A DNA stretch of 64,000 nt from Thermoplasmatales archaeon (GCA_030672305.1 DAOVGR010000064.1:33080-97079); one strand, 5' to 3'. Shown: positions 7,925 through 36,475, counted from the first letter of the stretch. A program made the numbers and translations. Notes: a model not told the origin generated them from the sequence alone.

Positions 7925-7938
7925 CCAAATTCCTTTTT
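7925..7938. repeat. att core of element 1, distal copy
   Basis: CCAAATTCCTTTTT identical to 19046-19059; read on the minus strand it continues KEFGKVKKITQT-stop, the displaced gene end. Confidence 0.85.
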
Positions 7939-7995
7939 AGAAATTGTTTACAATATAATTATGTTTTTAACTTTGATTAGTTTTTTAGCATTCAA

Positions 7996-8080
7996 CAGAT
8001 ATAGACGGTTTTTTACTATTTTCATGAATCCATGTATTTTTGTTACAAATGTTATAAAATCATTAAAATTGTCTTAATCA
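7996..8080 (+). repeat. 85-bp subterminal sequence of element 1, repeated at 63740-63824
   Basis: 72/85 identical, ungapped manual alignment. Confidence 0.9.
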
Positions 8081-8246
8081 TGCTATAATACACCAATATT
8101 CCAATTTTTAATTAATGTATAGAAAAACCAATAGATCCATTTGAAATATGGAAAAAGCTCGATCAAAAAATTGGAAAAGAATACTTGAGACCAACACAAA
8201 AACAAGAAATGCTCATTATATAATCTATAATCTAAAATATTGATTT

Positions 8247-9962
8247 TTATTCGGCAGAATTTAAATGTTTTTTGAGATCGATAATGTATATGGGTCTTGT
8301 AAAACCTGACAACGATAACTTATGAGTCGAATTAGGAATAACATCATCGGATTTTGAAAAGATTGAAGCGGAAATTTCTTCCAGGTCAACGCCAACTTTT
8401 TTAAAGGCCTGTATATCTTCTTCTGTTACATCCCAACAAACAATACAATTAATTTCGTCAAACATTTTTTTGGCATCAGAAAAATCTTTTATGATATTTT
8501 TTAATTTAGATTTAAATTCAATTACTAATTTTTTACTACCCCATAAAGCATAAAGGTCATATTTGCTCCTGTAACCCATTGTTAAAGGTGTTATGTCGCT
8601 TATTCGCCCATTACCAATGCATTCAAAAAATAGTGCAAATACGCTTGCTTCTTGATTTCGTGGGTTCTTTTTCAGTTTAATTCCTTTAATAGTTAAATTG
8701 AGCATTTTATCTATTTCTGCAAATATTTCGTCCCTATCCCACTCTGAAGTTACAGTAACTTCTCCAGATACGTACTTAGTTACAAATTTCAAATAATCAT
8801 TGAATATCTGTCTTGAATATTGCTGTATTAATCTAGATTGAGCACCAGGTAGTGATTTTCTGCCAATATCAAATTTAAGCATCGGGTCCTCAATAAGTAT
8901 GAATATATTGGCCCAATAACCAGCATATCCTGTACTTGGACTATTTGTAGGAATCCCCGTAGGCATACCTTTTACAGATGTAAAAATTCCCTCCTCGAAT
9001 TTTGCGTATCCAAAACGATCTAACCATTCCTCTCGTTCCAATTGATCTTCGTCACATAATTTATTTTTTACCGAAAGTATATCCCAAACTTTTCTTTTTG
9101 GAACAAAACATGTGACATACTTTAACTTTCTTTGATCACTGTGCTTAAATTCCCCTTTTTTATAAATAATCCTATCTTTTAGTTTTTTTCTTTTTTCAGC
9201 ATCTGTTCTTTCTGCAGATCTTGCAAATGTGACAAAATCGTCATAATCAATTATAGAATTTGAAGGTAGATTTTCATATATTAACCAATATTTATATGGT
9301 AATTCTTCTTCAAAATCATTACCACTTTGGTCTTTAAAACGTAATATTATCTTGACATTCTTGTCTTCTTCCCAAATAGATTTAGTATTACCTAAAGCAG
9401 TTTTTGTTCTTAATATAAATTTTAATTGTTCAAAAGTCCATGTAAAAATCGGGCAATCAATTGTATCTGTCAAAATTAGTTCTGTTCCAAAAAAAACATC
9501 ATCTAATTTATTATACACTAAAGTAAGCGGTTCATTATCTGACCTATGTTTCCAATTGTGCCCATCTGTTACTTTACCAATGCTTGTTCCATTTTTATTA
9601 CCAGATTTAATTGAAAAATGATTACATGAGAACATTACAAAAGTTAGACCAACTCCTTTCTCACCTATTGAAATGGCTTTCCCTCTTTTATTTGTTGAAA
9701 ATGGTTTTAAAAGTTCTGGTAAATCATTCGGATCTATACCAATACCGTTATCAACAAGTCTTATTTTTTTTAACTGAGAATCAATTTCTAAAACTATTTC
9801 ACCTGTTTTATTGTCTGACTCCCTAATAGCGTCTATAGAGTTTTGACATAATTCAGCCAATAAATCCCAGTCATGATTGTAACTATCATCAATTTCTAAT
9901 ATTTGATGTCTAATTTGATTTAAACCAGGTTTTAAAAAATCTGCGATTTGTTTTTGACACAT
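8247..9962 (-). CDS. GHKL (MORC/MutL/Hsp90-like) ATPase with C-terminal PD-(D/E)xK-like nuclease domain
   Basis: ELCQNSIDA, DNGIGI, GEKGVG GHKL motifs; C-terminal YDL...IEFK...IVCWD. Confidence 0.75.
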   Translation of the reverse strand: MCQKQIADFLKPGLNQIRHQILEIDDSYNHDWDLLAELCQNSIDAIRESDNKTGEIVLEIDSQLKKIRLVDNGIGIDPNDLPELLKPFSTNKRGKAISIGEKGVGLTFVMFSCNHFSIKSGNKNGTSIGKVTDGHNWKHRSDNEPLTLVYNKLDDVFFGTELILTDTIDCPIFTWTFEQLKFILRTKTALGNTKSIWEEDKNVKIILRFKDQSGNDFEEELPYKYWLIYENLPSNSIIDYDDFVTFARSAERTDAEKRKKLKDRIIYKKGEFKHSDQRKLKYVTCFVPKRKVWDILSVKNKLCDEDQLEREEWLDRFGYAKFEEGIFTSVKGMPTGIPTNSPSTGYAGYWANIFILIEDPMLKFDIGRKSLPGAQSRLIQQYSRQIFNDYLKFVTKYVSGEVTVTSEWDRDEIFAEIDKMLNLTIKGIKLKKNPRNQEASVFALFFECIGNGRISDITPLTMGYRSKYDLYALWGSKKLVIEFKSKLKNIIKDFSDAKKMFDEINCIVCWDVTEEDIQAFKKVGVDLEEISASIFSKSDDVIPNSTHKLSLSGFTRPIYIIDLKKHLNSAE

Positions 9963-10020
9963 TATTTTTGAAAAGAAGTATATCCTTATATATTTTAAGG
10001 CTCACAATAGTTTAGATGAC

Positions 10021-10133
10021 CATAATAAAAATAAACCCTGTTGCAATCCTGTTTTTACATCTAAACTCCCTGCTTTACAGAAGAAAAACACCCTTTTAAG
10101 ACATTATTACTCCTTATTCCCTCCTGGAGAATT
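10021..10133 (-). other. Conserved non-coding element shared with element 2 (34113-34226)
   Basis: 94/110 identical in reverse complement. Confidence 0.85.
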
Positions 10134-10168
10134 TGACTATTTGCAATCTATCTTAAAAAAAGTAGTTA

Positions 10169-10348
10169 CTATTTTTTTGGTTTTTTAGTTTTCATCTCTG
10201 TTATAATACTAAGATCTTTTAATGTGTTACCAATTGCAGAACGTACAAAATCAGATCTGTTCATGCTATAGCCTAGTTCTACAGCTCGATCAATACCTTC
10301 TATTGTTTCTTTGGATATCACAATATGTAGAGTAGGTTTTACATCCAT
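10169..10348 (-). CDS. Ribbon-helix-helix (CopG/Arc/MetJ) regulator
   Basis: LHIVISKETIEGIDRAVELGYSMNRSDFVRSAI pattern; likely start ATG 10348. Confidence 0.8.
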   Translation of the reverse strand: MDVKPTLHIVISKETIEGIDRAVELGYSMNRSDFVRSAIGNTLKDLSIITEMKTKKPKK

Positions 10349-10386
10349 AGTATGGACATAGCATAAACCTTTTATATACATTGCTA

Positions 10387-10412
10387 TTACATAGTTATTA
10401 CATACTATGTAA
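10387..10412. promoter_or_regulatory. Inverted-repeat operator between divergent RHH and AbrB genes
   Basis: TTACATAG-N10-CTATGTAA, perfect 8-bp arms. Confidence 0.55.
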
Positions 10413-10441
10413 CTTGTATGTGATGGTAGGTGATGAATGAA

Positions 10442-10609
10442 ATGAAGAGAAAAGTAATAGTTGGTAAAAAAGGCAAGATAACTCTACCAAAAGAGATGCT
10501 TGATGCAATGAATTTAAAAGAAGGGGACACTATTAAATTTGAAGTGGAATGGTTTCATCAAGAAAATCCTCATAAGGATTACAAGGGAGTAGTAATATCA
10601 AAAGCATAA
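10442..10609 (+). CDS. AbrB/MazE/SpoVT-like protein (not in track)
   Basis: MKRKVIVGKKGKITLPKEMLDAMNLKEGDTIKFEV; GGTGA SD. Confidence 0.85.
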   Translation: MKRKVIVGKKGKITLPKEMLDAMNLKEGDTIKFEVEWFHQENPHKDYKGVVISKA

Positions 10610-10626
10610 ATTGGAGGATTTGAAAC

Positions 10627-10950
10627 ATGGAAATACCGATAAATAATAAGATTGGAGATATATATTCCGATCTTATAGAAACACAATGCTCAATAGATTA
10701 TGATAAATTGAGACCAACAGATATTACACGACATATTTTAATGATATTTGAAGAAAGAAATCTCAAAGATTTAACAGTAGATATAGTACACGGACTTATA
10801 CAAAAAATACATGAAAACTTCGAAGTACATGATTATTGTAATATGACTGATTTTATAGGTTTTAATTTGTTAAATGAAGTTACTGAAACTATAAATTTTT
10901 ACAAGGAAAACGACAAAAATAATAATCCAGAGGAATTAAACAATGACTGA
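10627..10950 (+). CDS. Hypothetical protein
   Basis: 107-aa ORF with GGAGG SD, in operon. Confidence 0.65.
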   Translation: MEIPINNKIGDIYSDLIETQCSIDYDKLRPTDITRHILMIFEERNLKDLTVDIVHGLIQKIHENFEVHDYCNMTDFIGFNLLNEVTETINFYKENDKNNNPEELNND

Positions 10951-11158
10951 AAAAGATATACATGAAAAAGATATACATGAAGGAGAAATCCAACATCTAG
11001 TTCAATGTTATGATGAAGAAGATATGTTTGAGCATCTATCAGGGAAACCAATAAGAGAATCAGACCTGAAAAAGTATAATCTAAAAGAGGGGGATAAAAT
11101 TAGATATACTATTGATAAAGATGGATATGCAGTTGTGGTTAGCAAATTAAATGAATAA
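10943..11158 (+). CDS. Small protein with AbrB-like C-terminal half
   Basis: YNLKEGDKIRYTIDKDG resembles the AbrB core; overlaps the upstream stop. Confidence 0.5.
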   Translation: MTEKDIHEKDIHEGEIQHLVQCYDEEDMFEHLSGKPIRESDLKKYNLKEGDKIRYTIDKDGYAVVVSKLNE

Positions 11159-11301
11159 ATCCTTCCTGTAATAGTTCCAATATCAGGGAAAAAGCAACAA
11201 AATCACCAAAATATATTTGCAATAGATGCAAGGAAGAATTTGATAAACCAGAAACATGATTTTTGTTTCCATACCTGTTGCTTCTGGTTAGTATAGTTAT
11301 T

Positions 11302-11799
11302 TTAAAATGAAATCGTTCTATATAAAGCAATTATTGCAACTATTATTACAAACAAAATTAAGAAATATCTTACTAATCTTATGTGTTTTTTTAGCTTTGG
11401 TTCTAGGATTTTTTCACTATATTTTATCAACTTATCACTTGAATTGGGTGACATAAATGCAAAAGTAAAAATTGCAGTCAATACAATAAAGGTAGTTATA
11501 AAATCAATGTCTGAGATTGGTTCGCCCTCGGTATTTACAAAGTGTAATAGAAGTAAACTAAACATGTAGGAACTGAAAAATCCCCAAAAATTGATAAAAT
11601 AATCATTTTCTGTTCTTGTTAAATAGATGTAATATAAGATCGCAAACAGGATGAATAAACTAAATAAAGGGATTATCGACTGCTTTGAATACGCTAAAAG
11701 AAAACCACTTATTATTAGAAAAACTTGCATTATTCTTTCTCTTGTCTGAATTTCCCGATAACGTTTCTCATCTTTCATTGTATTTTTCTTCCTCAACAA
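11302..11799 (-). CDS. Hypothetical multi-TM membrane protein
   Basis: About five hydrophobic segments. Confidence 0.7.
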   Translation of the reverse strand: MLRKKNTMKDEKRYREIQTRERIMQVFLIISGFLLAYSKQSIIPLFSLFILFAILYYIYLTRTENDYFINFWGFFSSYMFSLLLLHFVNTEGEPISDIDFITTFIVLTAIFTFAFMSPNSSDKLIKYSEKILEPKLKKHIRLVRYFLILFVIIVAIIALYRTISF

Positions 11800-11853
11800 T
11801 TATAATTATTCAAATGAGTAATAGTTAATTATACTATTTAAAAATAACAGAAA

Positions 11854-11959
11854 TGCCGTCATTTTAACACAGCTGAAGATCCTGCAGAAGACTATTTTGC
11901 CGTCAAAAAACTCCACGTGGAGTCAGGATCTGTGCGATATCACTTTCAAAATGACGACA
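11854..11959 (-). repeat. Phased palindromic site C, inverted copy of site A
   Basis: TGCCGTCA at 11854 and 11898, TGACGACA at 11952; 73/106 identical to 17565-17670 in reverse complement. Confidence 0.9.
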
Positions 11960-12136
11960 TTTTAGCATTCTGGGTTTAAAGAAAAACCTTTTTTCGCAGA
12001 TACAGTAAAAAAACAGATACAACTAAACCTATCATTGGAAAAGTTATCTCACAGCAAAAATCAGTCATATCCAATAGATTCATTATATTTACTCCATTAA
12101 CTTTCCATCTTTTTCTAATATTGTTTATTTGTTTCA

Positions 12137-12544
12137 TTAATTCCCTTTTAGTTTTAAAACACAGCCATATTCAACATAGAAATAATATTCAACATCGGGA
12201 TAAATAAAAATTAGTTCATTTATCTCCTTAGTTTCAAACCAGGCACAAACCCCAAAATCTGGATCAGAATTAGTAAAAATATTGACATCCCCACCGGTAC
12301 CAATAATTGATGATATCGCTTTTTCAACCTCTATTTTTCCTGAATCTGGAAAAACACATTCCGGGAATACCACAGTATTATATCGATTTCCCCCGGAACC
12401 TTCCGCATTTAATTGTTGTTTAAAATTACACGAATCATTAAAAAAACCTAGGCAACCTGAAAAAGCAGATACAATAATAAATAAAACTATTAGAATAAGA
12501 GAGATACTGGATTTCTTACTAATATTTCTGATACCTTTTTTCAT
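12137..12544 (-). CDS. Putative lipoprotein
   Basis: Basic N-terminus, hydrophobic core, FSGC lipobox-like motif. Confidence 0.65.
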   Translation of the reverse strand: MKKGIRNISKKSSISLILIVLFIIVSAFSGCLGFFNDSCNFKQQLNAEGSGGNRYNTVVFPECVFPDSGKIEVEKAISSIIGTGGDVNIFTNSDPDFGVCAWFETKEINELIFIYPDVEYYFYVEYGCVLKLKGN

Positions 12545-12614
12545 CTTTTATCAACTCTATACGATTAAATATACCTCACCACACCACACCAAAAAATAGA
12601 CAGAATTATACTTG

Positions 12615-12785
12615 TTAATCTTCCTCGACTATGACATAAACAGATTTACCTATCAACTCAAAGGGTAATGTGACCTTACCGCTCGAACTATTAGATTTGT
12701 GTACTCTCCGTTGATAGATCTGTTCAAATTTGATTTCTTTAAGAACCAATTGACCTTGAGTTTTTTTTACTGTCATGGTTGCCAT
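12615..12785 (-). CDS. DUF2080-like (AbrB-fold) small protein (not in track)
   Basis: MATMTVKKTQGQLVLKEIKFEQIYQRRVHKSNSSSGKVTLPFELIGKSVYVIVEED; paralog at 29146-29310. Confidence 0.75.
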   Translation of the reverse strand: MATMTVKKTQGQLVLKEIKFEQIYQRRVHKSNSSSGKVTLPFELIGKSVYVIVEED

Positions 12786-12908
12786 CTGTCCTAAATATAT
12801 AGCCTATAATTAGAATGAATATAGTCTACAATATTAATATTTTTCGAACCTGAAGAAGATAAGGAGGGATTGAAAAAACATGTTATCATAAAAGTATTCA
12901 TATTAAAA

Positions 12909-13004
12909 TGCCGTCAAAACAAACCATGATCAAGATCTGGCCATGCTGGAAATGACGGCAAAATAGCATGGTCCAGGATCTAGATCTATATCAAAATGAC
13001 GGCA
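12909..13004. repeat. Phased palindromic site B
   Basis: TGCCGTCA 12909, TGACGGCA 12953 and 12997 (44-bp steps); 46/52 identical to part of site D in reverse complement. Confidence 0.9.
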
Positions 13005-13089
13005 AAACACTATTTAGATATCATTATAAAAATTAATGTGAAGATATCTACCACGTGGGCCCAAGAATCAAATAATGATAGATTGAAGA

Positions 13090-13790
13090 TAAAGTATTAG
13101 AGATCAATTAATCAATATACTATAATGATATCACACTCTATGGTAGGATACACAATCAGAAAAATAATACAAAACAAGTAATTACTTCAAGAGATTAGTA
13201 TTGAATAAACAAGAAAATTATAAGAAATATTGAGAAACTCATTCATCAGATCCTGGTCCTTCTTATCTAGATGATAGAAGATTAGAGATCAATAAATCTA
13301 TAGTATTAATGATATCTCTCTCTATGGTAGGATACACTAAGAAAGATTCATAATAAAATACAAGATTATATCTAGAAAAATTCTAATAAAATTGAAAGAT
13401 TAATGCAAGACTATGCAAGATTTCCATTTTCTTTTATATCAATCGATGGCTCATCCAGAACTCTATATTGACCATGGCCTAATCTAGATGATAAAGATTA
13501 GAGATCAATTAAGTCATTACAATTACTTATAATATATTTCCCATCCCATTAGTTGTTTTAAAAGGTTAGTTAGTTATCACTTCTTCATTATTCTGAAGAA
13601 ATTCACCATGAATATCACATACACTTTGATAACTTGCCTTGTATTTTTTAAATAGAAGATTAGAGATAAGAAAGTCAATACAATTAATTAATAATATCTT
13701 TCCCATCCCATTAGTTGTTTTATAAAAACATACATACATACCAAATCAACCATTACTCCTGTAAAAATTAAAAAATAAATGTACACAATG
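13090..13790 (-). repeat. Non-coding tandem array of element 1, four units
   Basis: ATTAGAG-anchored repeats at 13096, 13281, 13497, 13659; homologous to 26700-27720. Confidence 0.9.
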
Positions 13791-13836
13791 GTAGGTTTTA
13801 AATATTTTAGATCTACTTCGATCTATGTTTTAGTAT

Positions 13837-14232
13837 CTATTTATCTTTCTTAACAAATCTACCCGTATTATCCCGTGGTTGATCTATCTTATTACCACGG
13901 ACAAAACGACCATGACCATTCCGACCACTACCATCTATAGACACATCTGAATCTTTATCGTCTAACTCCAAGAGTTTATGTTCTAAGTTCCTAGTCCTCT
14001 CTTTTTCATCATAATAAGAATTCTTCCAAGAGTCCACAGATTTTTCCAGATCTTTAATCCTTGAATGAGTTTTTTCTAACTCTAGGAGTTTATTCCTGAT
14101 TGCATCTGTATACAGATTAAAATATTTCTTTCCTTCAAATTTAATAAAACCGTGGTCAATAAGAGACACCAATGATTCCTCGCTATCTACAAAGATTACT
14201 TTTTTACCACGGACCGTATTAGTCATTTCCAA
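13837..14232 (-). CDS. Coiled-coil protein with two C-terminal GRFV motifs
   Basis: RNGHGRFVRGN and RDNTGRFV; function unknown. Confidence 0.65.
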   Translation of the reverse strand: MEMTNTVRGKKVIFVDSEESLVSLIDHGFIKFEGKKYFNLYTDAIRNKLLELEKTHSRIKDLEKSVDSWKNSYYDEKERTRNLEHKLLELDDKDSDVSIDGSGRNGHGRFVRGNKIDQPRDNTGRFVKKDK

Positions 14233-14242
14233 TTATACCTCC

Positions 14243-14470
14243 TCAATTTCTTTTTATAAATTTTTTAAATTTTACAACATTAATCGCGTGTACTCCTCTA
14301 TGATCTTCAACCAAGTCAAAGACCACAGGATCATCTTTTTTAAGAAAAACAGGAATGTTAGATACATCTGATTTATGAAAGAAAATACCCACGGAGTCAC
14401 CATTTGAATCACTACTATTGATGAATCCGTATCCCTTTTGAAGATTAAATGATTTAATTATTCCATTCAT
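14243..14470 (-). CDS. Cold-shock domain (CspA-like) protein
   Basis: GIIKSFNLQKGYGFI (RNP-1) and IFFHKSD (RNP-2). Confidence 0.9.
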   Translation of the reverse strand: MNGIIKSFNLQKGYGFINSSDSNGDSVGIFFHKSDVSNIPVFLKKDDPVVFDLVEDHRGVHAINVVKFKKFIKRN

Positions 14471-14473
14471 GTT

Positions 14474-14815
14474 TTATATTCTCCTGAAAGAATTTGAAAT
14501 AGGATTAAAATTTACAACATAGACCTCTGGATTTGAAGAAGACGGATTTTTAGGGTTGATTTCATCCCATTTCCTAAAAAATTCCTCCCGGGTATAACCT
14601 CCCTCACACCAAGCATCCTTGTCAGAAATATCAAGTAAAAATTCTTTATGAACACTAATTATGAAGAGCTCTGCGAAAAACTCTTTAGAAAGCATCTTTG
14701 TTTTTGCTTTATGAATAGATCCAGGTTTACAACGTGGTTTTTTCCAGATACATCTAGTCTGGATTTTAAGGCCCTGTTGAATCAGTCCTATATGCTCAGG
14801 TTTAAACAAAATCAT
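14474..14815 (-). CDS. ASCH domain protein
   Basis: LFKPEH...GLKIQTR ASCH motif, DAWCEGG; 90/113 identical to 26321-26665. Confidence 0.85.
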   Translation of the reverse strand: MILFKPEHIGLIQQGLKIQTRCIWKKPRCKPGSIHKAKTKMLSKEFFAELFIISVHKEFLLDISDKDAWCEGGYTREEFFRKWDEINPKNPSSSNPEVYVVNFNPISNSFRRI

Positions 14816-14933
14816 TATTTCATATCCTTACAATTTCGTGGGTTTCCAACATTTACCATCAAATAAATAGGGGCACCCACAACAATTTTTACTCCCCTGA
14901 TAATCACTACAATCATTCATTTTTTCAGATCCA

Positions 14934-16916
14934 TTATTTACCATCTAAATCCTCCCTATTTTCATTAAAATAATTATCATCAGAATCAATTTTTAAAGTA
15001 GTTTCAAAAGAAGAATCTGAAACAACTTGTTTCAAAATCCTTTCAATACGATCTATGTCTTTCAAGCTTTTTTTATTCATCCGTCTAGCAATTTGCAGGG
15101 CAGGTAATTTTTCAGATCCTAGAATTTTTTCTATTTGCTGAATTGTCATCTTATATTTTGATAAATCAATTTCTGGACCTGTTTTTTCAACAGTAGTATT
15201 TTCATTTTGAATCGTTTCTAACGTTTTCTGTTGATCTTCTTTATTTATCTTTTCTAATTTATCTAAATCTCTCTCTTCAAAATATTTACTATACCGTTTT
15301 TCGTCTCTCTCACGTAAATATTGCCTTAAAACTAAGAAAACCGCGAAAACCTTCCTGTTGAATGGTATTTCATGGCCTAAGAAAACCAAAGAAAACCCAT
15401 CGTCCTTCTTATTTTTTGGTTTTCTTGGTTTTATTTTATTATCAGAAAACCACTTTTCTAAGATATCGTCATCGTCGGTTTTCTTGGTATTCTTGGTTTT
15501 ATTAATGATTTTATCTATTTTTTGTTGTATCTCATACCATGTCGGGATAGCATTGAAATTTAATCCTGGTGAATATTGATAAGTAACGATGTTTTTGTTA
15601 GCATTTTCATCTGGCCTCTGACTTTTAACTACTAATTTTGTTTTAACTATCTTTGCTAAATTTCTATAAAGCCAATCTTTGCTTTTATCACATTTAAGAA
15701 AAATCTCTGCGACGCTCATTGGTTCGACGTTTTCTTGAAGTATTGTAAGGACATCTCGGTACTCCTTACTCATTGGTATCATTTTAGGATTTGAAGTAGT
15801 ATAGATCAACACTAATCTCGCGATCATATAGTCATCTGGTGTTGTAATCAGTTCTCCGTTCTCTGTTTTTTTCCTCTGGGCTTGATGAAAAACAGCACTT
15901 GCACAAATATAAATTAAAAATCTATGAAAATGAGTTCTCATAAGAATGTCATCTGGAAAAAAATGCTGTATTAATTCAGCATAAGGTATTATCACAGAAT
16001 ATGAATCTAAACTAATCAAAGCACTTCTCAGAATATTGTCAGGTTTATTGATTTCCCTTCCTGTAAATGCTTTTGAAATTTTATCCTTGACTCTCTTTGT
16101 TTGATCTATGGTATCGTTTAAACTTCCTATTGGAAAACGTCTTAATCCCTCGTCTTCAAGGTTCGCATGGTGAGAAGTAAGAATCATACAGGGTTTACCG
16201 TTGACTATAGGTTCTATGACTTTTTGATCTTTCAGCACTGCTGCTTTAGAATTTCCACTAGCCATTACCTTAAAAGTAGAGCAATTTAGAAGATCTTGAG
16301 TAATATCTTCAAAATGAATTACTTTTCCATCCCAACTCCAATCTTTTTCATCAGCATGCCAATAGGTAAATACTTGATTGCTCATTTTTGTTACATGTAA
16401 ATGATTTTTTTCTGGAATTATTGTTTTAAGGACTTTTTTTGTAGTATGATCTTTTCCTATACCTGTTGTATCAGATAATAGTAAATTTCTGCTTTCTGGT
16501 GTTGCATTTTTAACTAAACGAGTTGACGCAATAATTATTAATGTAATTATTGTGTCTTCTTCACCGGCTACACCGTTATTCTGCACTTCTTTAATTGTTT
16601 TGATTAAGAGTTCAGGATCTTTAAGAAATTTTTTTTGTTTTTCATGTTCATCTTTAATAATTTCTTTTGCAGGTTTAAACTCTGATTCTTTGAATTCTTC
16701 CGGGGTAACAAAATAAGTTTTTCTCCAACATCCACCTTTGGACTTATGCAGGCAACGTCCAATTTTACGGCCAATTTTATCTTTTTTAATTGGATGGTTT
16801 TTTGGTATTTTTTTACCGCATCTAAAACACTGTAATTGTTTTTTCTTTTCTTCTAGTTCTTTCTGTCTTTCTAGTTCTCTGATTTTCAGATCCTTAACTG
16901 TTTTCTTAGAATTCAT
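14934..16916 (-). CDS. Putative replication protein: N-terminal Zn finger, P-loop NTPase, HTH-like C-terminus
   Basis: CFRC...CLHKSKGGC; DTTGIGKD Walker-A-like; VIHFED Walker-B-like. Confidence 0.6.
   Translation of the reverse strand: MNSKKTVKDLKIRELERQKELEEKKKQLQCFRCGKKIPKNHPIKKDKIGRKIGRCLHKSKGGCWRKTYFVTPEEFKESEFKPAKEIIKDEHEKQKKFLKDPELLIKTIKEVQNNGVAGEEDTIITLIIIASTRLVKNATPESRNLLLSDTTGIGKDHTTKKVLKTIIPEKNHLHVTKMSNQVFTYWHADEKDWSWDGKVIHFEDITQDLLNCSTFKVMASGNSKAAVLKDQKVIEPIVNGKPCMILTSHHANLEDEGLRRFPIGSLNDTIDQTKRVKDKISKAFTGREINKPDNILRSALISLDSYSVIIPYAELIQHFFPDDILMRTHFHRFLIYICASAVFHQAQRKKTENGELITTPDDYMIARLVLIYTTSNPKMIPMSKEYRDVLTILQENVEPMSVAEIFLKCDKSKDWLYRNLAKIVKTKLVVKSQRPDENANKNIVTYQYSPGLNFNAIPTWYEIQQKIDKIINKTKNTKKTDDDDILEKWFSDNKIKPRKPKNKKDDGFSLVFLGHEIPFNRKVFAVFLVLRQYLRERDEKRYSKYFEERDLDKLEKINKEDQQKTLETIQNENTTVEKTGPEIDLSKYKMTIQQIEKILGSEKLPALQIARRMNKKSLKDIDRIERILKQVVSDSSFETTLKIDSDDNYFNENREDLDGK
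15334..15503. repeat. Convergent 9-bp iteron-like repeats inside the rep ORF, putative origin of element 1
   Basis: AAGAAAACC at 15334, 15379, 15389; GGTTTTCTT at 15418, 15477; variants at 15343, 15427, 15443, 15486, 15495. Confidence 0.6.
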
Positions 16917-27980: not shown

Positions 27981-28035
27981 ATATTTAAGATTAAAAGAGA
28001 ATGAATAAATTTTATATTACAGATTTAAAAGGAAT

Positions 28036-28890: not shown

Positions 28891-29145
28891 ATAATCCCCC
28901 TGCTATATTTTGAACTTTTAATTGACTCTTAAATGTTTCTAAAAACAGGATATGTATAAGGAATTAAGAAAATTACGTAATAAAAATTTGTAACCCTAGG
29001 ATAGTTTTTACATTTGATGACTTTTTCAGAGTATCATTGTTTTTCTATAATTTTTTTATTTTTTTCTTCTAAAGGTTCTCCTGGTTCAAAATATTTAAAT
29101 AGTAGTCTACTAATAGACTATTGATAGACTATATTATTAGGACAG

Positions 29146-29310
29146 ATGGCAACTATGACAGCAAAAAAAACATCAGGCCGATTAATACTCAAAGAAATCA
29201 AATTCGAACAGATCTACCAACGAACAGTTAGCAGATGCAATGAAACAAGTGGTAAAGTCACAGTACCAAGTAAACTTATAGGTAAACGTGTCTATGTTGT
29301 AGTCGAATAA
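29146..29310 (+). CDS. DUF2080-like small protein (not in track)
   Basis: MATMTAKKTSGRLILKEIKFEQIYQRTVSRCNETSGKVTVPSKLIGKRVYVVVE. Confidence 0.75.
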   Translation: MATMTAKKTSGRLILKEIKFEQIYQRTVSRCNETSGKVTVPSKLIGKRVYVVVE

Positions 29311-29393
29311 ATCCTAGTATTATTACTGTTATAGTTCTGTCTTTTTTTGGTGAGGTGGGGTGGAAATATTAATTTCATTGGAGTTGTAGAAAG

Positions 29394-31016
29394 ATGAAGA
29401 GATTATTGATAATTGGTGTAATTATAGCTGTTTTCATACTCATAGGAAGTCTATTCTATACAGGTATAATCCCAGGGCTTGGAGTCCTGGATAACGATAC
29501 CAATACAATATCAAAAACCCATATATGCATCAAAGGAAATGGAAGAAGTGAACTACTGGATAAAAAAGGATACATCCTGAGTTATAAAAATGATGAATTC
29601 AGTGAAAAAATAAGCATCATAGGTCAACTGCAAAAAACTGGTTCTGATTGTGCTCATTGTGGTTTTTTGTATGAAAAAGTAAGATATCTTGTTTATCTGA
29701 AACTGGATTCTTCGCATGAGTATGAACTTATGAGTTCACCAGGAGATACAAAGAGATATTTTAGTAATCCTAACCCTGGTGAGATGTATAAACCTGCTCT
29801 TGGATGCTGGAAGGACAATGCAGGGAACCCCAGAGATGATGGATATCAAAGACCTTATGATTTTTACTTGGTTGGAAATGATTATTCAAATGGCGCAATC
29901 AAAGCGGTAATCCAATGTAAACTAGACTTGAGCATGTGGGATGATAAAGGTTCAAAATGGTACACCATGGCCATTGATGAAGCATTCCTATACAGCGGAT
30001 ATGGTGGACTACATCTCCCCAGGGGACTTGAAGATGAACTAGATAAACCATATAGCACATTTGAAGTAGGACAAACAGTCAAAATAGGAGTAGAAACCGC
30101 AAAAGGTGGACAAACCGGAGATAACCAAAACTGGCGCGTAACACTCAATAAACCCTATTCTGGAAACATTGACAGTCCTGAAGATGGAACAGTGGTGGTT
30201 TCTCAGAATTTCCCGGATGATTGTGATCCTAGTAATACATTTTTTGAATTTACTGTTACTGATGAAATGGCCAGGCAATCAATGAGTAATTCTTATCCGT
30301 ATACTGTTAGGATTTGGAATACACTTCTCCCCAAGGGTTCACTTCAGATTGATTTTGTTGATTTTGTTGCTGGTTGTCCCAGTGATGTTGATTTTGTAGG
30401 ATCAATAAAGGTCAAAGTTGGTGAAACTACAACTGTTGATCTTTCTGCAACTGTAAGCAGTGGATCCAGTGCAAGTATTGATTATTTCAGAGTTGCAGTG
30501 ATCTATGGAACCAATGATGCATTGCTTCCAGGGGATCATAGCAGTAGTCTTTGGATTATTCATACAACACCAGTTGGAAATGATGATAGCAAAGCATGTG
30601 GTGTTCCACAGACTATCCAGTTTAAAGCAGATAGGGAAGAATTTGTAACTGTTCATGCAAAAGCATTTGATACTGATGGAAGGGGATCTAAAACAACCCG
30701 GACATTTACAATGAAGATATGGGGTGAATCTGGTGAACCACCAGATGAAACCATTGCAGATGAAACAGGTGATGCTGATTATGGTGGTGGACATACAAGT
30801 GGATGGCATCCTTGGGATCCCAGTGAAGGAACCTGGGAACAAGGACTCCCAATAAAAATTGATACAACAGGAGTTATCATTGCTATAGTTATCCTGGCTA
30901 TTTTTGCATTGATTGCCTTACTTATTCCTAATCTGAATCAATATATCCGGTTCGCAATCATACTTGTTGGAGTTGCAATTGCAATCATCCAATATCTATT
31001 ATTCTTCATATCCTGA
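29394..31016 (+). CDS. 540-aa membrane-anchored surface protein
   Basis: N-terminal signal/anchor, beta-rich ectodomain with 8 Cys, acidic Gly-rich linker, two C-terminal TM helices. Confidence 0.75.
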   Translation: MKRLLIIGVIIAVFILIGSLFYTGIIPGLGVLDNDTNTISKTHICIKGNGRSELLDKKGYILSYKNDEFSEKISIIGQLQKTGSDCAHCGFLYEKVRYLVYLKLDSSHEYELMSSPGDTKRYFSNPNPGEMYKPALGCWKDNAGNPRDDGYQRPYDFYLVGNDYSNGAIKAVIQCKLDLSMWDDKGSKWYTMAIDEAFLYSGYGGLHLPRGLEDELDKPYSTFEVGQTVKIGVETAKGGQTGDNQNWRVTLNKPYSGNIDSPEDGTVVVSQNFPDDCDPSNTFFEFTVTDEMARQSMSNSYPYTVRIWNTLLPKGSLQIDFVDFVAGCPSDVDFVGSIKVKVGETTTVDLSATVSSGSSASIDYFRVAVIYGTNDALLPGDHSSSLWIIHTTPVGNDDSKACGVPQTIQFKADREEFVTVHAKAFDTDGRGSKTTRTFTMKIWGESGEPPDETIADETGDADYGGGHTSGWHPWDPSEGTWEQGLPIKIDTTGVIIAIVILAIFALIALLIPNLNQYIRFAIILVGVAIAIIQYLLFFIS

Positions 31017-31122
31017 AATATTTAGACTTGCCAAAATATCTAGAAGAAGGGCTAATGGCAAGAGGTTAAACTATTCACCTTCATAATAGCCCTCTTCTCT
31101 CCTTAAAAAAAGAGGTAAAAAA

Positions 31123-31521
31123 ATGAATCTAACAGATCTAACTGATTTATGCTGTGGAATCACTTTTCCAATAATTGGAATAGTTGTTACAGTGTTTTTG
31201 CTGTATCTTAGAAAGAAAGGATATTCTTTCAATCTTAGAAGTCTATGGGATGATGATGATGCTGTAATGGTTATTTCCAGAGCTTTTGCAATTGGCGTTC
31301 CATTGATCCTGGTAACAATTTTTCATACTGCTAATGCTTTTGGGATTGGAATATGGGAACCACTTCTCAGTATAGCATTAGCATCAGCAATTATAATTTC
31401 TGGTGCTGTTATCGCTGTTCTTGGTCTAAAAGTAGGTTTTTATTATCCGATGATGCTGATTTTCATCATCTGGGTTCTATTGATCTATGTTTATCTTCAA
31501 TTTGAAGCTAACATAATATAA
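31123..31521 (+). CDS. Small four-TM membrane protein
   Basis: Hydrophobicity pattern; AGAGGT SD. Confidence 0.75.
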   Translation: MNLTDLTDLCCGITFPIIGIVVTVFLLYLRKKGYSFNLRSLWDDDDAVMVISRAFAIGVPLILVTIFHTANAFGIGIWEPLLSIALASAIIISGAVIAVLGLKVGFYYPMMLIFIIWVLLIYVYLQFEANII

Positions 31522-31544
31522 AAAAAATAATAAAAAAAAGAGTT

Positions 31545-31853
31545 TTAGATATCTATACCAAATTGATGCATCAACTGATACCCACGATTCTTGAAATAAC
31601 CCTTTTCTAAAATCTGATTGAATAATAAATCATCGATATTATCGTTTATTATTCCCAGGTAATCACAACCTTTGGAATCTTTTTCTGGTTCTCCCTTTTC
31701 ATCTGTAAGTTGATTTTTCAAAACTTTATCATAGATCTTCCAGGTAACAAGAACACCATCCACAAAAGTTAATTGATTCTCTTGATCATCTGCATAATAT
31801 CTTTCTGTGTATTCACTTAAACTTTCTTTTTTTTTCTTTTTCAGTTCTGTCAA
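31545..31853 (-). CDS. Hypothetical protein
   Basis: 102-aa ORF with GAGGTG SD. Confidence 0.6.
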   Translation of the reverse strand: MTELKKKKKESLSEYTERYYADDQENQLTFVDGVLVTWKIYDKVLKNQLTDEKGEPEKDSKGCDYLGIINDNIDDLLFNQILEKGYFKNRGYQLMHQFGIDI

Positions 31854-31869
31854 GATTCAACACCTCTTT

Positions 31870-32094
31870 TTAATCTATTAAGAAATACTGATTCATTTTG
31901 TCGAATTTATCTTCTTTTAATCTTCGGATCATACTTCGAAGAGTCTCTTTAAGTTTTTCTAAAGGATCTTTATCCTTTTTCCACGTGTCACTGATCTCAT
32001 AAAGGAACTCTAGCACATCTTCAGAGCTCATATTCTTTATTTCTTCTAAAGCTTCTATTTTGTCTTCATTTTCCATATGTTTCAATTCTCCCAA
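31870..32094 (-). CDS. Hypothetical acidic helical protein
   Basis: 74-aa ORF in operon with the previous gene. Confidence 0.55.
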   Translation of the reverse strand: MGELKHMENEDKIEALEEIKNMSSEDVLEFLYEISDTWKKDKDPLEKLKETLRSMIRRLKEDKFDKMNQYFLID

Positions 32095-32140
32095 TTTTTT
32101 AAATTCATATTATAAAACTACTATTTAAATCTGCGTAGAA

Positions 32141-32338
32141 ATGTTTAAGTATGCGCAAAAGTATTTTAAGACTATGCCTGATTTAAAGAATTCTATGGGA
32201 TCTAAACCATTGAATATCAGTCTACCAGAAGAACAAAGAGATGAACTTAAAAGATTAGCAGAAAAAGAGAATAGAGCTATCAGTCATCAAATAATTCATA
32301 TGATGAAATTTTATATCAAACATAAAGATAAGATTTAA
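32141..32338 (+). CDS. Arc/CopG-like ribbon-helix-helix regulator
   Basis: LNISLPEEQRDELKRLAEKENRAISHQII. Confidence 0.85.
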   Translation: MFKYAQKYFKTMPDLKNSMGSKPLNISLPEEQRDELKRLAEKENRAISHQIIHMMKFYIKHKDKI

Positions 32339-32355
32339 TGATGAAAAGGTAGTAT

Positions 32356-32441
32356 TGATATCATTGTTAGATCCAACTGATCAGTGTTTTGATATCACTT
32401 TGTTGCGGGATCCTGTGGATATCCAACCGTTTTTGATATCA
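32356..32441 (-). repeat. Phased palindromic site F, inverted copy of site E
   Basis: TGATATCA at 32356, 32390, 32434 (34/44 steps). Confidence 0.9.
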
Positions 32442-32449
32442 TGATTAAT

Positions 32450-33148
32450 TTATTTAGTATTCACACATGTAAATTTAATTACATTTGGTGCAAAATTAAT
32501 ATCTTTTTCTAAAATAGAAATAGCTTTATTTGCTTCCTTAGAAAAATCTTTGACACGGGTATAACAATTAATAATAAATTCAATACGAGAATGAGTTGCC
32601 AATTCACAAAACGTATCTTTTAAAATTACATTTTTAAATCTAATTGATTTAATTGCTTGATGAATTTGAAAATATTTTTCAAAAACTATTCCATCCTCTA
32701 AATTTAATTCAATTAATAAAAAAGTTATTTTTTCTCTTAAAGCCGGAACAATAACTCTTATCATATTCAAAGACAGTTCTGAAAGATAATTTGATAATTT
32801 TTCAATAGGATTTCCTTTTAAAAAATCATATATTTTTTCATATAAAAACTTATAAAAATTTTCAGTTTTTTTATCCTCTTCAATAAGCTTATTAAAAGAT
32901 TTAATAAGATAAGAATCTCTTTCAAATTTAGAATCAATTTCAGCTATTTTTTTTATTTTTTTCAATGATTTTTCTACTACATATGTAATTTTGTGTCTTA
33001 TTTGCTCTTGTGTATTACTTATAGTACTTTCACAAAAAAAACAATCATTTTTCTCCTTTTTTAATAAATTAGTTACAAAAGAATGATTCTTATCAAATTT
33101 ATTTAATAAAGGTATAATAAGACTATAATCCAAAGTATAATATGCCAA
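32450..33148 (-). CDS. Hypothetical protein, weak PIN-like N-terminus
   Basis: YTLDYSLIIPLL...DKNH resembles the first PIN strand and helix. Confidence 0.45.
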   Translation of the reverse strand: MAYYTLDYSLIIPLLNKFDKNHSFVTNLLKKEKNDCFFCESTISNTQEQIRHKITYVVEKSLKKIKKIAEIDSKFERDSYLIKSFNKLIEEDKKTENFYKFLYEKIYDFLKGNPIEKLSNYLSELSLNMIRVIVPALREKITFLLIELNLEDGIVFEKYFQIHQAIKSIRFKNVILKDTFCELATHSRIEFIINCYTRVKDFSKEANKAISILEKDINFAPNVIKFTCVNTK

Positions 33149-33877
33149 TTATCCACCTAATAATCCTAATACAACATTATAATCAGATGATGTTATATAG
33201 TTAGCATCAGGAATTTTATTCATTTCCAAATAACTACAAGAAATAGATCTTTCAAGTTCTTTTAATTTAATCTTATTCCTTTTATAAGCTTCCATTTTTA
33301 AAACTAAATAAAGTGAAAAATTGAATTGTCTTACAATTTTTTTAGGATTCATATCAACTAAAATATCTTTTAAATTTTCTTCAATTTTGTAAAATAATTG
33401 ATCTGTTATCATTAATTCATTTATTTTAGAATTTTTCTTCCATATTCTATATCCAATTTCTCTTCTTAAAATATTAATGTTTGAAAACAATTTTAAAATG
33501 GCAAAACGAATAACTTGTTTTTTAAGAGTAGGATCTAATTTTTTAAATGATGTTTCTGCTGATTCAAAATATTTCTTTAAATCAGAGTCTAAAAATATAT
33601 CCCTAACATTATCTTTAAATTTTTCAAGATCGCTCATAATATTAATAGATATTAAATCGGTAAGCGAATCAATGAGTTTTTCTTGTTGTTTTGTATCACT
33701 ATTCAATATAAAATCAAAAACTTTTGCTTCGTGAGATTTTCTAATTCTTTTTAAAATATTTTTACCACTGACCATTGGTTCATATAGTATTACTGTTTGG
33801 TTATACATCTCATCAGAGAAATCATTTAATACTCCAACTGCTGATAAATAATTATCTTTATCTGATGAATTTCCCAT
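33149..33877 (-). CDS. Hypothetical protein, weak PIN-like motifs
   Basis: C-terminal D..YITSSD; directly abuts the next gene. Confidence 0.4.
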   Translation of the reverse strand: MGNSSDKDNYLSAVGVLNDFSDEMYNQTVILYEPMVSGKNILKRIRKSHEAKVFDFILNSDTKQQEKLIDSLTDLISINIMSDLEKFKDNVRDIFLDSDLKKYFESAETSFKKLDPTLKKQVIRFAILKLFSNINILRREIGYRIWKKNSKINELMITDQLFYKIEENLKDILVDMNPKKIVRQFNFSLYLVLKMEAYKRNKIKLKELERSISCSYLEMNKIPDANYITSSDYNVVLGLLGG

Positions 33878-34023
33878 TTATTGAACCACCAAACAGAATT
33901 ATAATGCTGTTATTATATTATATAGGCTTCTTATTATATTTAATTTTACTTACACTTTTGTTGTTCTTAGAGTAATAAAATAGTATAAATAAATCTTTTT
34001 ATTAAATTTTTATTCTTTTTTAT

Positions 34024-34073
34024 TACCGTCATTTGTTAAGATCCTGCGATGGACCAAGTCTTTTTTAATAGCA
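34024..34073 (+). repeat. Degenerate site G, related to site A
   Basis: TACCGTCA then GATCCTGCGATGGACCA, matching GATCCTGCGATGGTCCA in site A. Confidence 0.65.
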
Positions 34074-34112
34074 ATTTAACATTTTTTAATTAAGGTAAAA
34101 CTTGAACATTCT

Positions 34113-34226
34113 AATTCTTCAGGAGGAAATAAGGAGTAAAAATGCCTTAAAGGTATGTTTTTCTACTGTAAAACCAGGAGTTTAGTTGAAAAAACAGAGT
34201 TGTAACAGGGTTTATTTTTATTCATG
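34113..34226 (+). other. Conserved non-coding element shared with element 1
   Basis: 94/110 identical to reverse complement of 10021-10133. Confidence 0.85.
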
Positions 34227-34401
34227 ACTTATTTTAAAAAGAGCTGAGACAAATACTCAGTTGGTTGAGGGTTTATCATTGACCTGAAAGCTTTGTTTTA
34301 TCGTCATATGCCGAAAATTGGTATAATTGATAATTGGTCTATAATCACAACGCCTTATTATATTTCATAATAACATCTATTAACAAATAGTTTATTTTAA
34401 T

Positions 34402-35070
34402 TTGATTTTGAATATGAGCCAAAAAGAATTATTAAAAATAGTATTTGGTAGTCTTGCCCTAGCATTTAGTGGTATTGTAGTGATTTTTGGTTTAATGAAA
34501 GATATGCCAATGATGTTAGCATGTCTTTCTGTTTCTCTTGGTTTATTGTCTGCCTATCTGGTTTTTGAAGCTAGAGTAGAACGAGAAAAGAAACTTCAAG
34601 AAGAAATTCGAAGAAAATTAACTATAATGAAATGGGAAAATGATTCAAATCTAGAGCTATTAAAAAAATTTAAAGATAGAATGGATAAACTATATCCTAA
34701 GAAATTATTGGATAAAAAATTACAACAACCAAGTAGTCTAAAGTATTATCTTACTTCAGAAGAAATAGAAATAATCCGCGATGGTAAAATATGGATTCAA
34801 AAACAACATTGTTTGTATGATAGTGCAATTCAAGTTTTAGAAATTGGTCATTATTTTAACAATGAATTTATTGACGTAATCAAGGAAAGTATTAAAAAAT
34901 TAGATGATTTAAACCAACAGAAAGATTTTGTTCAATCATGGATTATTGAAAAAGGTTTTAGGCTTAATCCCGATGAAATGAACGATCTACGTAATAAAAT
35001 TAACGAAGCAGATGAAATAAGTAAGAAACTGCAAAAAATGATATTACATGAACAAAATACTATTCTTTAA
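34402..35070 (+). CDS. Hypothetical protein, two N-terminal TM helices plus helical domain
   Basis: Hydrophobic N-terminus, coiled coil. Confidence 0.7.
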   Translation: MILNMSQKELLKIVFGSLALAFSGIVVIFGLMKDMPMMLACLSVSLGLLSAYLVFEARVEREKKLQEEIRRKLTIMKWENDSNLELLKKFKDRMDKLYPKKLLDKKLQQPSSLKYYLTSEEIEIIRDGKIWIQKQHCLYDSAIQVLEIGHYFNNEFIDVIKESIKKLDDLNQQKDFVQSWIIEKGFRLNPDEMNDLRNKINEADEISKKLQKMILHEQNTIL

Positions 35071-35162
35071 AAATAACAACTCTCTCTTTCTACTTTTTTT
35101 TATTAAAGTTTATAAGTAATTTTTCTTTATCTATAAAAAAAGTAGGAAATGGGGGAGGAAAA

Positions 35163-36192
35163 ATGAAAGGATTTTTTGATAAAAAACATTATTATGAAAT
35201 TGTATTACCAATAGATAATTTAGAGTTGACTTATAAAAGTTTTACTATCGGTAAAGTAAAATTTTTTGAATACAATAAATATCATTACCAAAAATTTATG
35301 AAGGAAATCCGAAAAAAAATTAATCGAAATCAATATTATAGAGATAAACCTCAAGCAAAAAAAAATGTAATTAAAAATATCTCAAGATACTATAAACAAA
35401 ATATTAAAGATAATAAAAAAAAAAATATGTAGCATTACAACATCTTATGGTCATATAGATGATGCTTATCTACGTGCTCTTCATGATACGAAAATTGCAA
35501 TAAATGTTTTAAAATTATACCGTTATCCAAATGATGATTTTTATAAAAGATATTTCGGTATCCAGGGTGAAATAATCCCAAGAAATGCACGAGCAGTTCT
35601 TACAAAAGCACCTCCAGATAAGTATCGCCCTACTGTTGAAGCTTATGGTTGTAGTTATCCTTATATAATTAATAATCAAAGAATAAATTTTATGAAACAA
35701 AATGGATTCAATTTACTTAATAATCTAATCAAAAAGAAAAAACATAATGCTTTAGATAAAAGGATTATTTCTGCTATTAATTGGTTTGGAGAAAGTTTCA
35801 ACTCTCATATAGCTCTAAGGGAAAATTATAAATCAATACATCAAACAAAAAGAATTGGATCAGGACGGGCAAAAAATTATGGTTTATCTGAACCACAGAG
35901 ACTTGTTTATTGTATAACAGCATTGGAAGGTTTATTTTCTTTTAGTAATTTTGATGATTATAAAGAAATAGGTAAAAGAATTTCAAAGATTCTTGGGCAA
36001 GATATTACTGTAGAGTATAAGAGATTATACAAAATCAGATGTAGTATTGTTCACAGAGGTTTAAGCTATGTTGATAAACGAGATCTTAATTCTATTTTTC
36101 ATTTAACCAAAGTAGCAATAATAACTTTAATTAAAAGAAAAGGGCGGTTAGGAATTAATAATGAACCAGATCTTAGGAATTGGTTAAAATAG
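35163..36192 (+). pseudogene. HEPN-domain (ApeA-like) gene split by a frameshift in an A11 run
   Basis: ORF 35163-35432 and a frame open from 35425 to 36192 join if one A of 35415-35425 is removed (342 aa); ITALEGL and RCSIVH (RxxxxH). Confidence 0.75.
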
Positions 36193-36475
36193 TTTTTTTC
36201 TACAGTTATCAACTTTAACATATACTGCAAATATATGGAAGCAATATTAAAATCCAGGCTTTTAAAAAAAAATTAAAATTGTATAGCTAATAACTAGAAG
36301 GTAATTTTAATATACCCATTGGTTATAACAGTTGAAAAAATAATGGAAGATATTCAATGACAATTATTAACACGATTACATACAAAAGGTTTATATACTA
36401 TAATAAAAACACTCAAAATAATAAAAAAAAGAATGATTTAATCTCAGTTGGCAATAATATAATATAGGTGATATT

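Follow-up and report, generated by a model that had tools for sequence, protein, structure and literature searches.

The window analysed here, a stretch of 64,000 nucleotides from a Thermoplasmatales archaeon (GCA_030672305.1, DAOVGR010000064.1:33080-97079), carries two site-specifically integrated mobile elements, termed A and B, which flank a ribosomal-protein operon. Very probably both are integrated copies of self-replicating integrative elements that form one modular family in sediment Thermoplasmata. This view is built on integration sites defined to the base, the polymorphism of these sites among relatives, homology and synteny between the two elements, the helicase fold modelled for one replication protein and the co-variation of iterons that follow its gene; we infer that A and B continue to excise and to replicate. 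The window corresponds to C65:33080-97079 in a metagenome-assembled genome (MAG; 2.8 Mb in 86 contigs) of an uncultured sediment archaeon with approximately 30% G+C. Element A extends from 7939 to 19045, with its genes on the minus strand and 11,107 bp between its attachment (att) cores, and element B extends from 21150 to 36461, with 15,312 bp between cores.

Insertion sites of elements A and B

We located S9 in 29 of 31 related genomes and fetched the surrounding DNA from four. In two genomes of the same genus (G002, which is a single contig, and G001) RpoN directly follows S9, and some 350 bp separate DUF5611 from the isomerase gene. The two insertion sites are thus empty in these genomes, and alignment to them makes the junctions base-exact. 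The joins 19045/7939 and 36461/21150, which an earlier sequence-only reading of the window had predicted, prove to be exact against these sites, and the empty attB sites that it proposed to look for are present for both elements. G003, a further genome of this genus, has both sites occupied on one contig; its A-type integrase is 80% and its B-type integrase 88% identical to the respective integrase of the window. A metagenome contig (L004) holds a sister element at the B site (integrase 52% identical), and its DUF5611 gene has no neighbouring insertion. The border genes, att cores and integrases are listed below.

6791-7561: triose-phosphate isomerase, host gene
approximately 7606-7760, minus strand: small AbrB/MazE-like gene (label read by eye), host gene
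7925-7938: left att core of element A, CCAAATTCCTTTTT, a 14-bp direct repeat that G002 and G001 have only once, at their empty site
17717-18982, minus strand: tyrosine integrase A, 421 aa (PF00589, 6.8e-15); an 80%-identical integrase lies at the same site in G003
19046-19059: right att core of element A, CCAAATTCCTTTTT, inside the 3' end of DUF5611; the G003 junction is at the same place
19030-19329, minus strand: DUF5611 gene, host gene; a SLOG gene is also among the host flank genes
19954-21151: L18e, L13 and S9, host ribosomal-protein operon between elements A and B
21142-21149: left att core of element B, ATATAGGT, 8 bp, at the last S9 codon, placed by alignment to the empty sites
21202-22323, plus strand: tyrosine integrase B, 373 aa (PF00589, 1.4e-9)
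36462-36469: right att core of element B, which retains the AGGTGA ribosome-binding site before rpoN
36476-36700: RpoN, host gene, with a GTG start at 36476
36763-36839: tRNA-Arg, the sole tRNA, outside the att sites

The empty B site reads ...CAGAAATCATATAGGTGATATTGTGATAATT..., in which the S9 stop codon is TGA and the GTG of RpoN stands 7 nt beyond; element B sits in this 7-nt gap. The junction nucleotide at S9 is identical in three independent elements (those of the window, G003 and L004), and the sequence on the element side is conserved. Core direct repeats are present at both ends of each element, with one copy at the empty site, and are perfect in both cases. The cores lie 52-63 bp outside the integrase genes, both of which are intact, and the R...HxxR...Y residues of tyrosine recombinases can be read in both translations. 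The integrase encoded near one end of each element would be the enzyme that recombines through the short core (8 bp in B, 14 bp in A), and the duplicated core would restore the ends of the host genes, namely S9 and rpoN for B and DUF5611 for A. Element B contributes a new TAA stop codon for S9, and element A the last four codons and the stop codon of DUF5611. An SSV-type (type I) element requires an integrase gene that is split by integration, and this class was rejected as both window integrases are intact; a tRNA-targeted island was likewise rejected, the only tRNA lying outside the att sites.

The 7-nt spacer of a conserved ribosomal-protein/RNA-polymerase operon is an unusual target, and its use at the same nucleotide three times raises the question of how rpoN is expressed. 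By eye, a TATA-like box, TTTATATA, preceded by AAAAGG, is located at 36389-36396, about 80 bp upstream of rpoN and inside the right end of element B. After insertion, transcription of rpoN would probably either start at this promoter, which the element supplies, or run on from the cargo genes.

Backbone and replication modules

When the reverse complement of element A was compared with element B by blastn and tblastx, the matches were colinear and in one order only, which bears out the common gene order described by the sequence-only reading: integrase, small conserved open reading frame (ORF), zinc-ribbon helicase, ASCH, repeat array, DUF2080 and membrane-protein module. The backbone features of element A, read away from its integrase, precede those of element B.

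17046-17288, minus strand: small conserved ORF of A, 51% identical to 24050-24286
14934-16916, minus strand: Rep-A, 660 aa, with zinc ribbon, P-loop ATPase and predicted winged helix
14474-14815, minus strand: ASCH-family protein of A, 80% identical to that of B and with many homologues that carry PF04266
13081-13723, minus strand: repeat array of A, 4 units, found by nhmmer with a unit profile
12615-12785, minus strand: DUF2080 protein of A, 56 aa (PF09853, 2.3e-5, above the Pfam cut-off)
24050-24286, plus strand: small conserved ORF of B
24528-25901, plus strand: Rep-B, 457 aa, with zinc ribbon, predicted AAA+/SF3-like helicase and winged helix
25903-26131: candidate replication origin, in which an AT-rich spacer of about 100 bp separates five direct ATGAATAC iterons from four inverted copies
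26321-26665, plus strand: ASCH protein of B (PF04266, above the Pfam cut-off)
26756-27719, plus strand: repeat array of B, 7 units of about 150 bp
29146-29310, plus strand: DUF2080 protein of B, 54 aa (PF09853, 1.4e-5, above the Pfam cut-off)

Between the two elements the small ORF is 66% identical at the nucleotide and 51% at the amino acid level, and ASCH is 84% and 80% identical respectively. Conservation of this ORF stands, although the "Sm-like" label that it had been given finds no Pfam or PDB sequence match. Array units are 75-95% identical, a box site (12909-12976 in A, 27911-27980 in B) 86%, the DUF2080 region 72%, the N-terminus of the 132-aa membrane protein 78% and a 113-bp element (10024-10136 in A, 34110-34222 in B) 85%. 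In contrast, the integrases are 27% identical, and a zinc-ribbon motif is all that Rep-A and Rep-B share; comparison of their profiles with hhalign gave no homology, and the two families are not detectably related. On these comparisons the elements are mosaic, as had been proposed, with a conserved backbone and a divergent integrase and Rep. The part that is kept would comprise ASCH, the repeat array, DUF2080 and the membrane-protein module, with variable cargo at the far end.

Rep-B has more than 190 close homologues, none of which contains a Pfam domain other than two that are fused to Prim-Pol/PriCT_1. An AlphaFold (AF2) model built on 40 sequences (predicted local distance difference test, pLDDT, 89) matches in Foldseek the helicase region of NrS-1 polymerase, MCM subunits, ASFV PrimPol, the SaPI5 primase-helicase, PriRep1, AAV Rep, SV40 large T and papillomavirus E1 (E 5e-7 to 6e-5). 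Because this confident model matches replicative helicases, Rep-B is predicted to be a replicative helicase of AAA+/superfamily 3 (SF3)-like type, carrying a zinc ribbon at its N-terminus and a winged helix at its C-terminus. A PDB profile search with Rep-B returned zinc ribbons only and no helicase. Rep-B resembles the pRN1/NrS-1-type primase-helicases in its model, since the NrS-1 helicase region, the SaPI5 primase-helicase and PriRep1 are among the fold matches, but the window Reps differ from them in that the zinc ribbon replaces the primase domain and in the absence of profile-level similarity to PDB helicases. Within the genome of the window, a 463-aa ORF (C19:27624-28007) without a Pfam match matches the profile of the Rep-B ATPase core (E ~1e-12) and appears to be a distant member of this helicase family.

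The structure that directly follows the Rep-B stop codon consists of two inverted sets of iterons around an AT-rich stretch, with a period of 11-12 bp in element B; the "91-aa ORF" called at 25903-26131 is a by-product of these repeats. The same layout is built from other iterons in related elements, for example ATGAACAC/GTGTTCAT in L001 and TGAATGC/GCATTCA in L004, and the iteron variants are ATGAATACTT in B, ATGAACACTT in L001 and GTGAATGCTT in L004. Nine further Rep-B loci have this layout with an iteron of their own, the pairs including GGTGAAGG/CCTTCACC, GTGAACAC/GTGTTCAC, TGTAGGGT/ACCCTACA and GTTACCG/CGGTAAC. The layout is thus found after Rep-B in 12 of the 12 elements examined, and the two arms co-vary in every one. 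Such a structure would look like an initiator-binding origin that co-evolves with Rep, and the co-varying iterons are the strongest evidence, of a comparative kind, that these elements would be autonomous replicons. Rep-B would bind the iterons and act on the origin just after its own gene. By the same comparative evidence B would possess both parts of a replicon, an initiator/helicase and its cognate origin. Together with the predicted helicase fold and the Prim-Pol-fused relatives, these observations agree with the earlier suggestion of a self-replicating family. Archaeal oriC (ORB, orc1/cdc6) and the SV40 and papillomavirus origins resemble that of B in lying beside an initiator gene and in having inverted repeats that flank an AT-rich stretch of about 100 bp. 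The B-type origin, a candidate recognised from sequence, differs in possessing 4-6 tandem iterons of 11-12 bp per arm that are element-specific.

The Rep-A family contains 1533 representatives (E up to 0.001). Four of the nine long members scanned start with Prim-Pol, one of these also having PriCT_1, and another matches the primase large-subunit family. The C-terminal part of Rep-A is a winged helix matching PDB winged-helix regulators, and these were the only matches of a PDB profile search with Rep-A. A third type of module, a Prim-Pol/PriCT/D5_N/DUF5906 protein, occupies the same position in element L064 of genome G105, which combines an integrase, this PrimPol-D5 helicase and the surface protein. 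The Pfam scan did not find a Prim-Pol domain in either window Rep, although it is present in relatives and in L064. Each element would encode its own initiator-helicase, composed of zinc ribbon, AAA+/SF3-like ATPase and winged helix, and members of the family would exchange replication modules of the Rep-A, Rep-B and classical PrimPol-D5 types.

Further integrases are linked to replication proteins elsewhere in the genome of the window. An island at C50:1644-7757 encodes an integrase of 382 aa that shares 36% identity with integrase B, a protein of 246 aa on the opposite strand and a 682-aa family A DNA polymerase (PF00476, 1.6e-24), a polymerase type not usually met in archaeal mobile elements. 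Two more integrases from this clade adjoin a D5_N/DUF5906 SF3 helicase of 486 aa at C2:23574-27461 and a 424-aa protein with no family assigned at C73:2359-4860. The genome thus contains at least five integrase-linked elements (A, B and those on C50, C2 and C73), in which four types of replication protein were identified.

Membrane module, repeats and cargo

The membrane-protein module differs between the two elements, and its features are as follows.

29394-31016, plus strand: 540-aa membrane-anchored surface protein of B, modelled as an immunoglobulin (Ig)-like stack with two C-terminal transmembrane helices
31123-31521, plus strand: 132-aa multi-pass membrane protein of B, co-occurring with the surface protein in L001 and L058
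12137-12544, minus strand: 135-aa protein of A with an N-terminal hydrophobic signal-like segment (from the ORF translation), at the position of the 540-aa protein of B
11988-12083: 32-codon remnant of the 132-aa membrane gene in A

A secreted protein had been noted in both elements, but it is not the same in the two: B has the 540-aa protein, and element A has the unrelated 135-aa protein instead. A would have lost the large surface protein and may be a reduced derivative. For the 540-aa protein we found 39 homologues and no Pfam domain; in its AF2 model (pLDDT 83) successive beta-sandwich domains lead to two membrane helices at the C-terminus. Fold matches in PDB and BFVD (Foldseek) are to generic stacks of Ig, FN3 and macroglobulin domains and to phage tail proteins (template-modelling score, TM, 0.13-0.27), and such matches are not specific. 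Searches of INPHARED and IMG/VR gave no sequence match for this protein, and our searches found no known relatives of the 132-aa protein. Of 197 genomes of the class, 3 have the 540-aa protein at full length. It occurs together with DUF2080 and the 132-aa protein; in L063 an integrase and a winged-helix protein accompany DUF2080 and the surface protein.

Homologues of the 540-aa protein also occur in single-direction arrays of at least 15 kb on five JGI/Logan contigs (L058-L062), together with an Rce1-like protease, giant proteins of 1237, at least 1491 and 1602 aa (DUF2341) and almost no other known domains. These arrays may belong to a larger virus or element, as yet undescribed, that shares these hosts. 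PHROGs gave no structural matches on these larger surface-protein-bearing elements.

The sequence-only reading had also pointed to a rich set of non-coding cis elements, and box clusters, the repeat array and the 113-bp element are all confirmed.

11854-11905: distal box cluster of A, TGACGGCAAA type
12909-13006: box cluster of A, TGACGGCAAA, with 44-bp spacing
17440-17672: box cluster of A, just downstream of the integrase gene
22321-22440: box cluster of B, four copies of TGATATCA with spacing 34/44/34
27843-27982: cluster of B with the A-type box TGACGGCAAA
32356-32441: second TGATATCA cluster of B, spacing 34/44
10024-10136, minus strand: 113-bp element, copy of A, ending in a T-run

With one mismatch allowed, TGACGGCAAA is matched 13 times in the window, where chance would give 2.2, and its clusters have a spacing of about 44 bp. 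One box cluster lies just past the integrase stop codon in both elements, and the DUF2080/surface-protein module of each has an A-type box upstream. Because the boxes are phased by whole turns and their sequences are element-specific, the clusters are suggested to be operators of DNA-binding regulators that the elements encode. The repeat array is also found in L004, with 4 units. RNAalifold gave no consensus structure for the array units, and most single-unit hairpins are no more stable than shuffled sequence, so an RNA function of the array was not supported; a role as protein-binding repeats, associated with partition or with the origin, has no more support. The 113-bp element has no open frame and its predicted hairpin includes one compensatory pair; it may be a small RNA.

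The remaining genes are listed below, those of element A first.

8247-9962, minus strand: GHKL-type ATPase, 571 aa, cargo (Pfam HATPase_c_3, 1.4e-10)
10169-10381, minus strand: ribbon-helix-helix (RHH)-like small protein (RHH_8, 8.6e-4; 19.8 bits, below the cut-off of 25.4)
14243-14470, minus strand: cold-shock-domain protein (Pfam CSD, 1e-13)
22459-23496, minus strand: 345-aa protein, kept in L004 and L007 (tblastn, 35% and 28% identity)
32141-32338, plus strand: CopG-like RHH protein (Pfam RHH_5, 4.1e-6)
32450-36192: variable cargo of B, proteins of 232, 242, 222, 89 and 166 aa with no secure family, including the 113-bp element at 34110-34222

By position, the counterpart of the 345-aa protein in L063 contains a FUR-like winged helix. 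The interval between origin and ASCH in B holds a frame of about 49 codons (26170-26319), coiled-coil-like by eye; in A, L001 and L004 the ASCH gene is followed by longer coiled-coil proteins, of 131, 257 and 251 aa respectively. Cargo had been described as defence-like; PADLOC yields weak matches and no more, of the GHKL ATPase domain in A to the ATPase part of TmtA (4e-8) and of the 166-aa protein in B to DzbB (8e-5). As the sequence-only reading had observed, genes for a capsid, terminase, relaxase or VirB4 are absent from our Pfam scans. No major capsid protein, terminase or portal was found in Pfam, or in PHROGs with the larger ORFs of both elements, and a head-tailed or other capsid-bearing provirus was rejected. 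A conjugative or integrative-conjugative element was likewise rejected, as the scanned ORFs gave no Pfam match to a VirB4/TraG-type ATPase or a relaxase, and so was a casposon, with no Cas1-family match among these ORFs.

Alternative readings and related elements

Several results weigh against the interpretation of A and B as active, self-replicating elements. The attP joins, which were to be sought in reads according to the sequence-only reading, are absent from JGI metagenome contigs in exact searches and from the assembly of the window's own genome, and no related contig that we fetched has the overlapping ends that are a sign of a circle. The iterons that had been described at both Rep genes are clear for B, but none were found for A, and no origin-like structure was located when one was looked for in connection with element A and Rep-A. 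Neither window Rep has a recognisable primase domain, so that priming would depend on the host. The lack of attP or circular forms in the JGI contigs, the assembly and the ends of related contigs also fits old, immobilised islands that arrived by means of an integrase and no longer excise or replicate, as does the condition of element A, which is without the large surface protein and retains only the remnant of the membrane gene. Nevertheless we consider such immobilisation rather improbable, as both integrases and both Reps are full-length open frames, the two copies of each att core agree perfectly, a single genus has both filled and empty sites, and the iterons of B are intact with matching arms. 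Least credible by far is that the paralogy is an artefact of assembly or binning, for example a chimeric contig joining strain variants, which the sequence-only reading had named as a refuting case. The genome is indeed a MAG of 86 contigs, but DNA identity across the shared segments is no more than 66-86% (a difference of 15-35% between the copies), A and B carry different Rep and integrase genes, a single-contig relative has colinear host flanks, and the independent genome G003 has integrases at both sites on one contig.

A further alternative is that A and B are proviruses of a capsid-less, membrane-enveloped group similar to pleolipoviruses, with the 540-aa protein as spike or fusion protein and the 132-aa protein as virion membrane protein; the spike-less A would then be a defective copy or satellite. 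Archaeal viruses are often one-direction gene arrays with almost no known domains, and the surface protein is also found in larger arrays of this kind, which have almost no known domains. It is accessory and rare, and not a host core gene. A size of 11-15 kb, an integrase and the conserved pair of anchored surface protein and small multi-pass membrane protein would also suit such a virus, and the A-type box upstream of the DUF2080/surface-protein module in both elements would allow cross-regulation. Pleolipoviridae (HRPV-1, SNJ2) indeed resemble A and B in genome size, in integration by a tyrosine recombinase, SNJ2 being a pleolipovirus with an integrase (PMC5861418), and in the absence of a capsid gene, and resemble B in having an anchored surface protein of about 500 aa beside a small membrane protein. 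However, A and B share no detected sequence similarity with them and have different replication proteins. Rep is the sole P-loop protein, no second, VP8-like NTPase turned up, and neither did any structural match in PHROGs. A VP4-like spike was not recognised by sequence (INPHARED) or by fold: neither INPHARED nor IMG/VR gave a sequence match to the surface protein, whose top 50 fold matches are generic Ig-like, with one generic match to the SARS-CoV-2 spike (TMq 0.14), no other viral fusion protein and no pleolipovirus spike. On this balance we regard the viral alternative, in which members of the integrative family would form virus-like particles, as unlikely, if the most plausible of the three. 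Its fuller form is somewhat less likely again, namely a new capsid-less enveloped virus group of Thermoplasmatota with an Ig-stack spike or fusogen, with A as a satellite co-regulated through TGACGGCAAA and with a promoter of B controlling rpoN; if it were true, the position of B between S9 and rpoN would place an RNA-polymerase subunit gene under an element-borne promoter. As a family, the elements may spread either as plasmids or as capsid-less viruses.

Returning to the reading as self-replicating integrative elements, archaeal integrative replicons with an integrase and a helicase are already well known as a kind. The cryptic integrated elements of Thaumarchaeota have been catalogued as combinations of an integrase with primase or SF3-helicase modules (PMC6563490), and archaeal "dark matter islands" are comparable integrated elements (PMC4158269). 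Such cryptic elements resemble A and B in having a tyrosine integrase, a helicase-type Rep, small DNA-binding proteins (RHH, AbrB/MazE-like), variable cargo, no virion genes, a similar size and exchanged replication modules. A and B differ from them in their sediment Thermoplasmata host, in helicase families without a Pfam model, in targeting the ends of protein genes and not tRNA genes, in the conserved backbone of ASCH, array, DUF2080 and surface protein, and in the lack of a sequence match to any deposited plasmid or phage record. Not known before are the family itself and, within it, the two helicase families, the origin and the target sites. No description of the family was found in the literature searched, and a search for its markers in phage records, plasmid records and IMG/VR found no member of a described family, in agreement with its earlier characterisation as undescribed.

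To our knowledge, very few mobile elements are known from Thermoplasmatota. The family offers base-exact att sites, two unannotated replicative-helicase families and determinants of origin specificity that emerge from co-variation. Genetic tools, which this lineage lacks, require parts of this kind, namely a replicon and two integrases whose targets are known.

Full-length Rep-B is present in approximately 9 of the 197 genomes of the class, a patchy distribution, and a scan of a genome collection found it in Thermoplasmatota/Thermoplasmatales MAGs only. Contigs with relatives of the window's elements likewise bear titles of Thermoplasmatota or Thermoplasmatales. Neither PLSDB nor INPHARED returned a match to Rep-B; INPHARED gave none for Rep-A either, and the only PLSDB matches of Rep-A were bacterial primase-helicases at 22-24% identity. 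IMG/VR contains one contig with Rep-B, and its ASCH homologues are only distant (at most 53% identity) and lie on otherwise unrelated contigs. The architecture itself is shared by relatives, as the sequence-only reading had proposed to check: the gene order of A and B recurs in L001 and L004, the latter with the array. A mosaic relative on a 14 kb ENA contig (L007, 5064-13028) encodes a Rep of A type (84% identical), for which the precomputed Pfam match is PF27228 (MTBMA_p00010_2nd, named after a Methanothermobacter plasmid protein). Its ASCH gene is followed immediately by a cluster of TGACGGCAAA, and the locus has four TGACGGCAA boxes, after which come a serine resolvase and a second tyrosine integrase.

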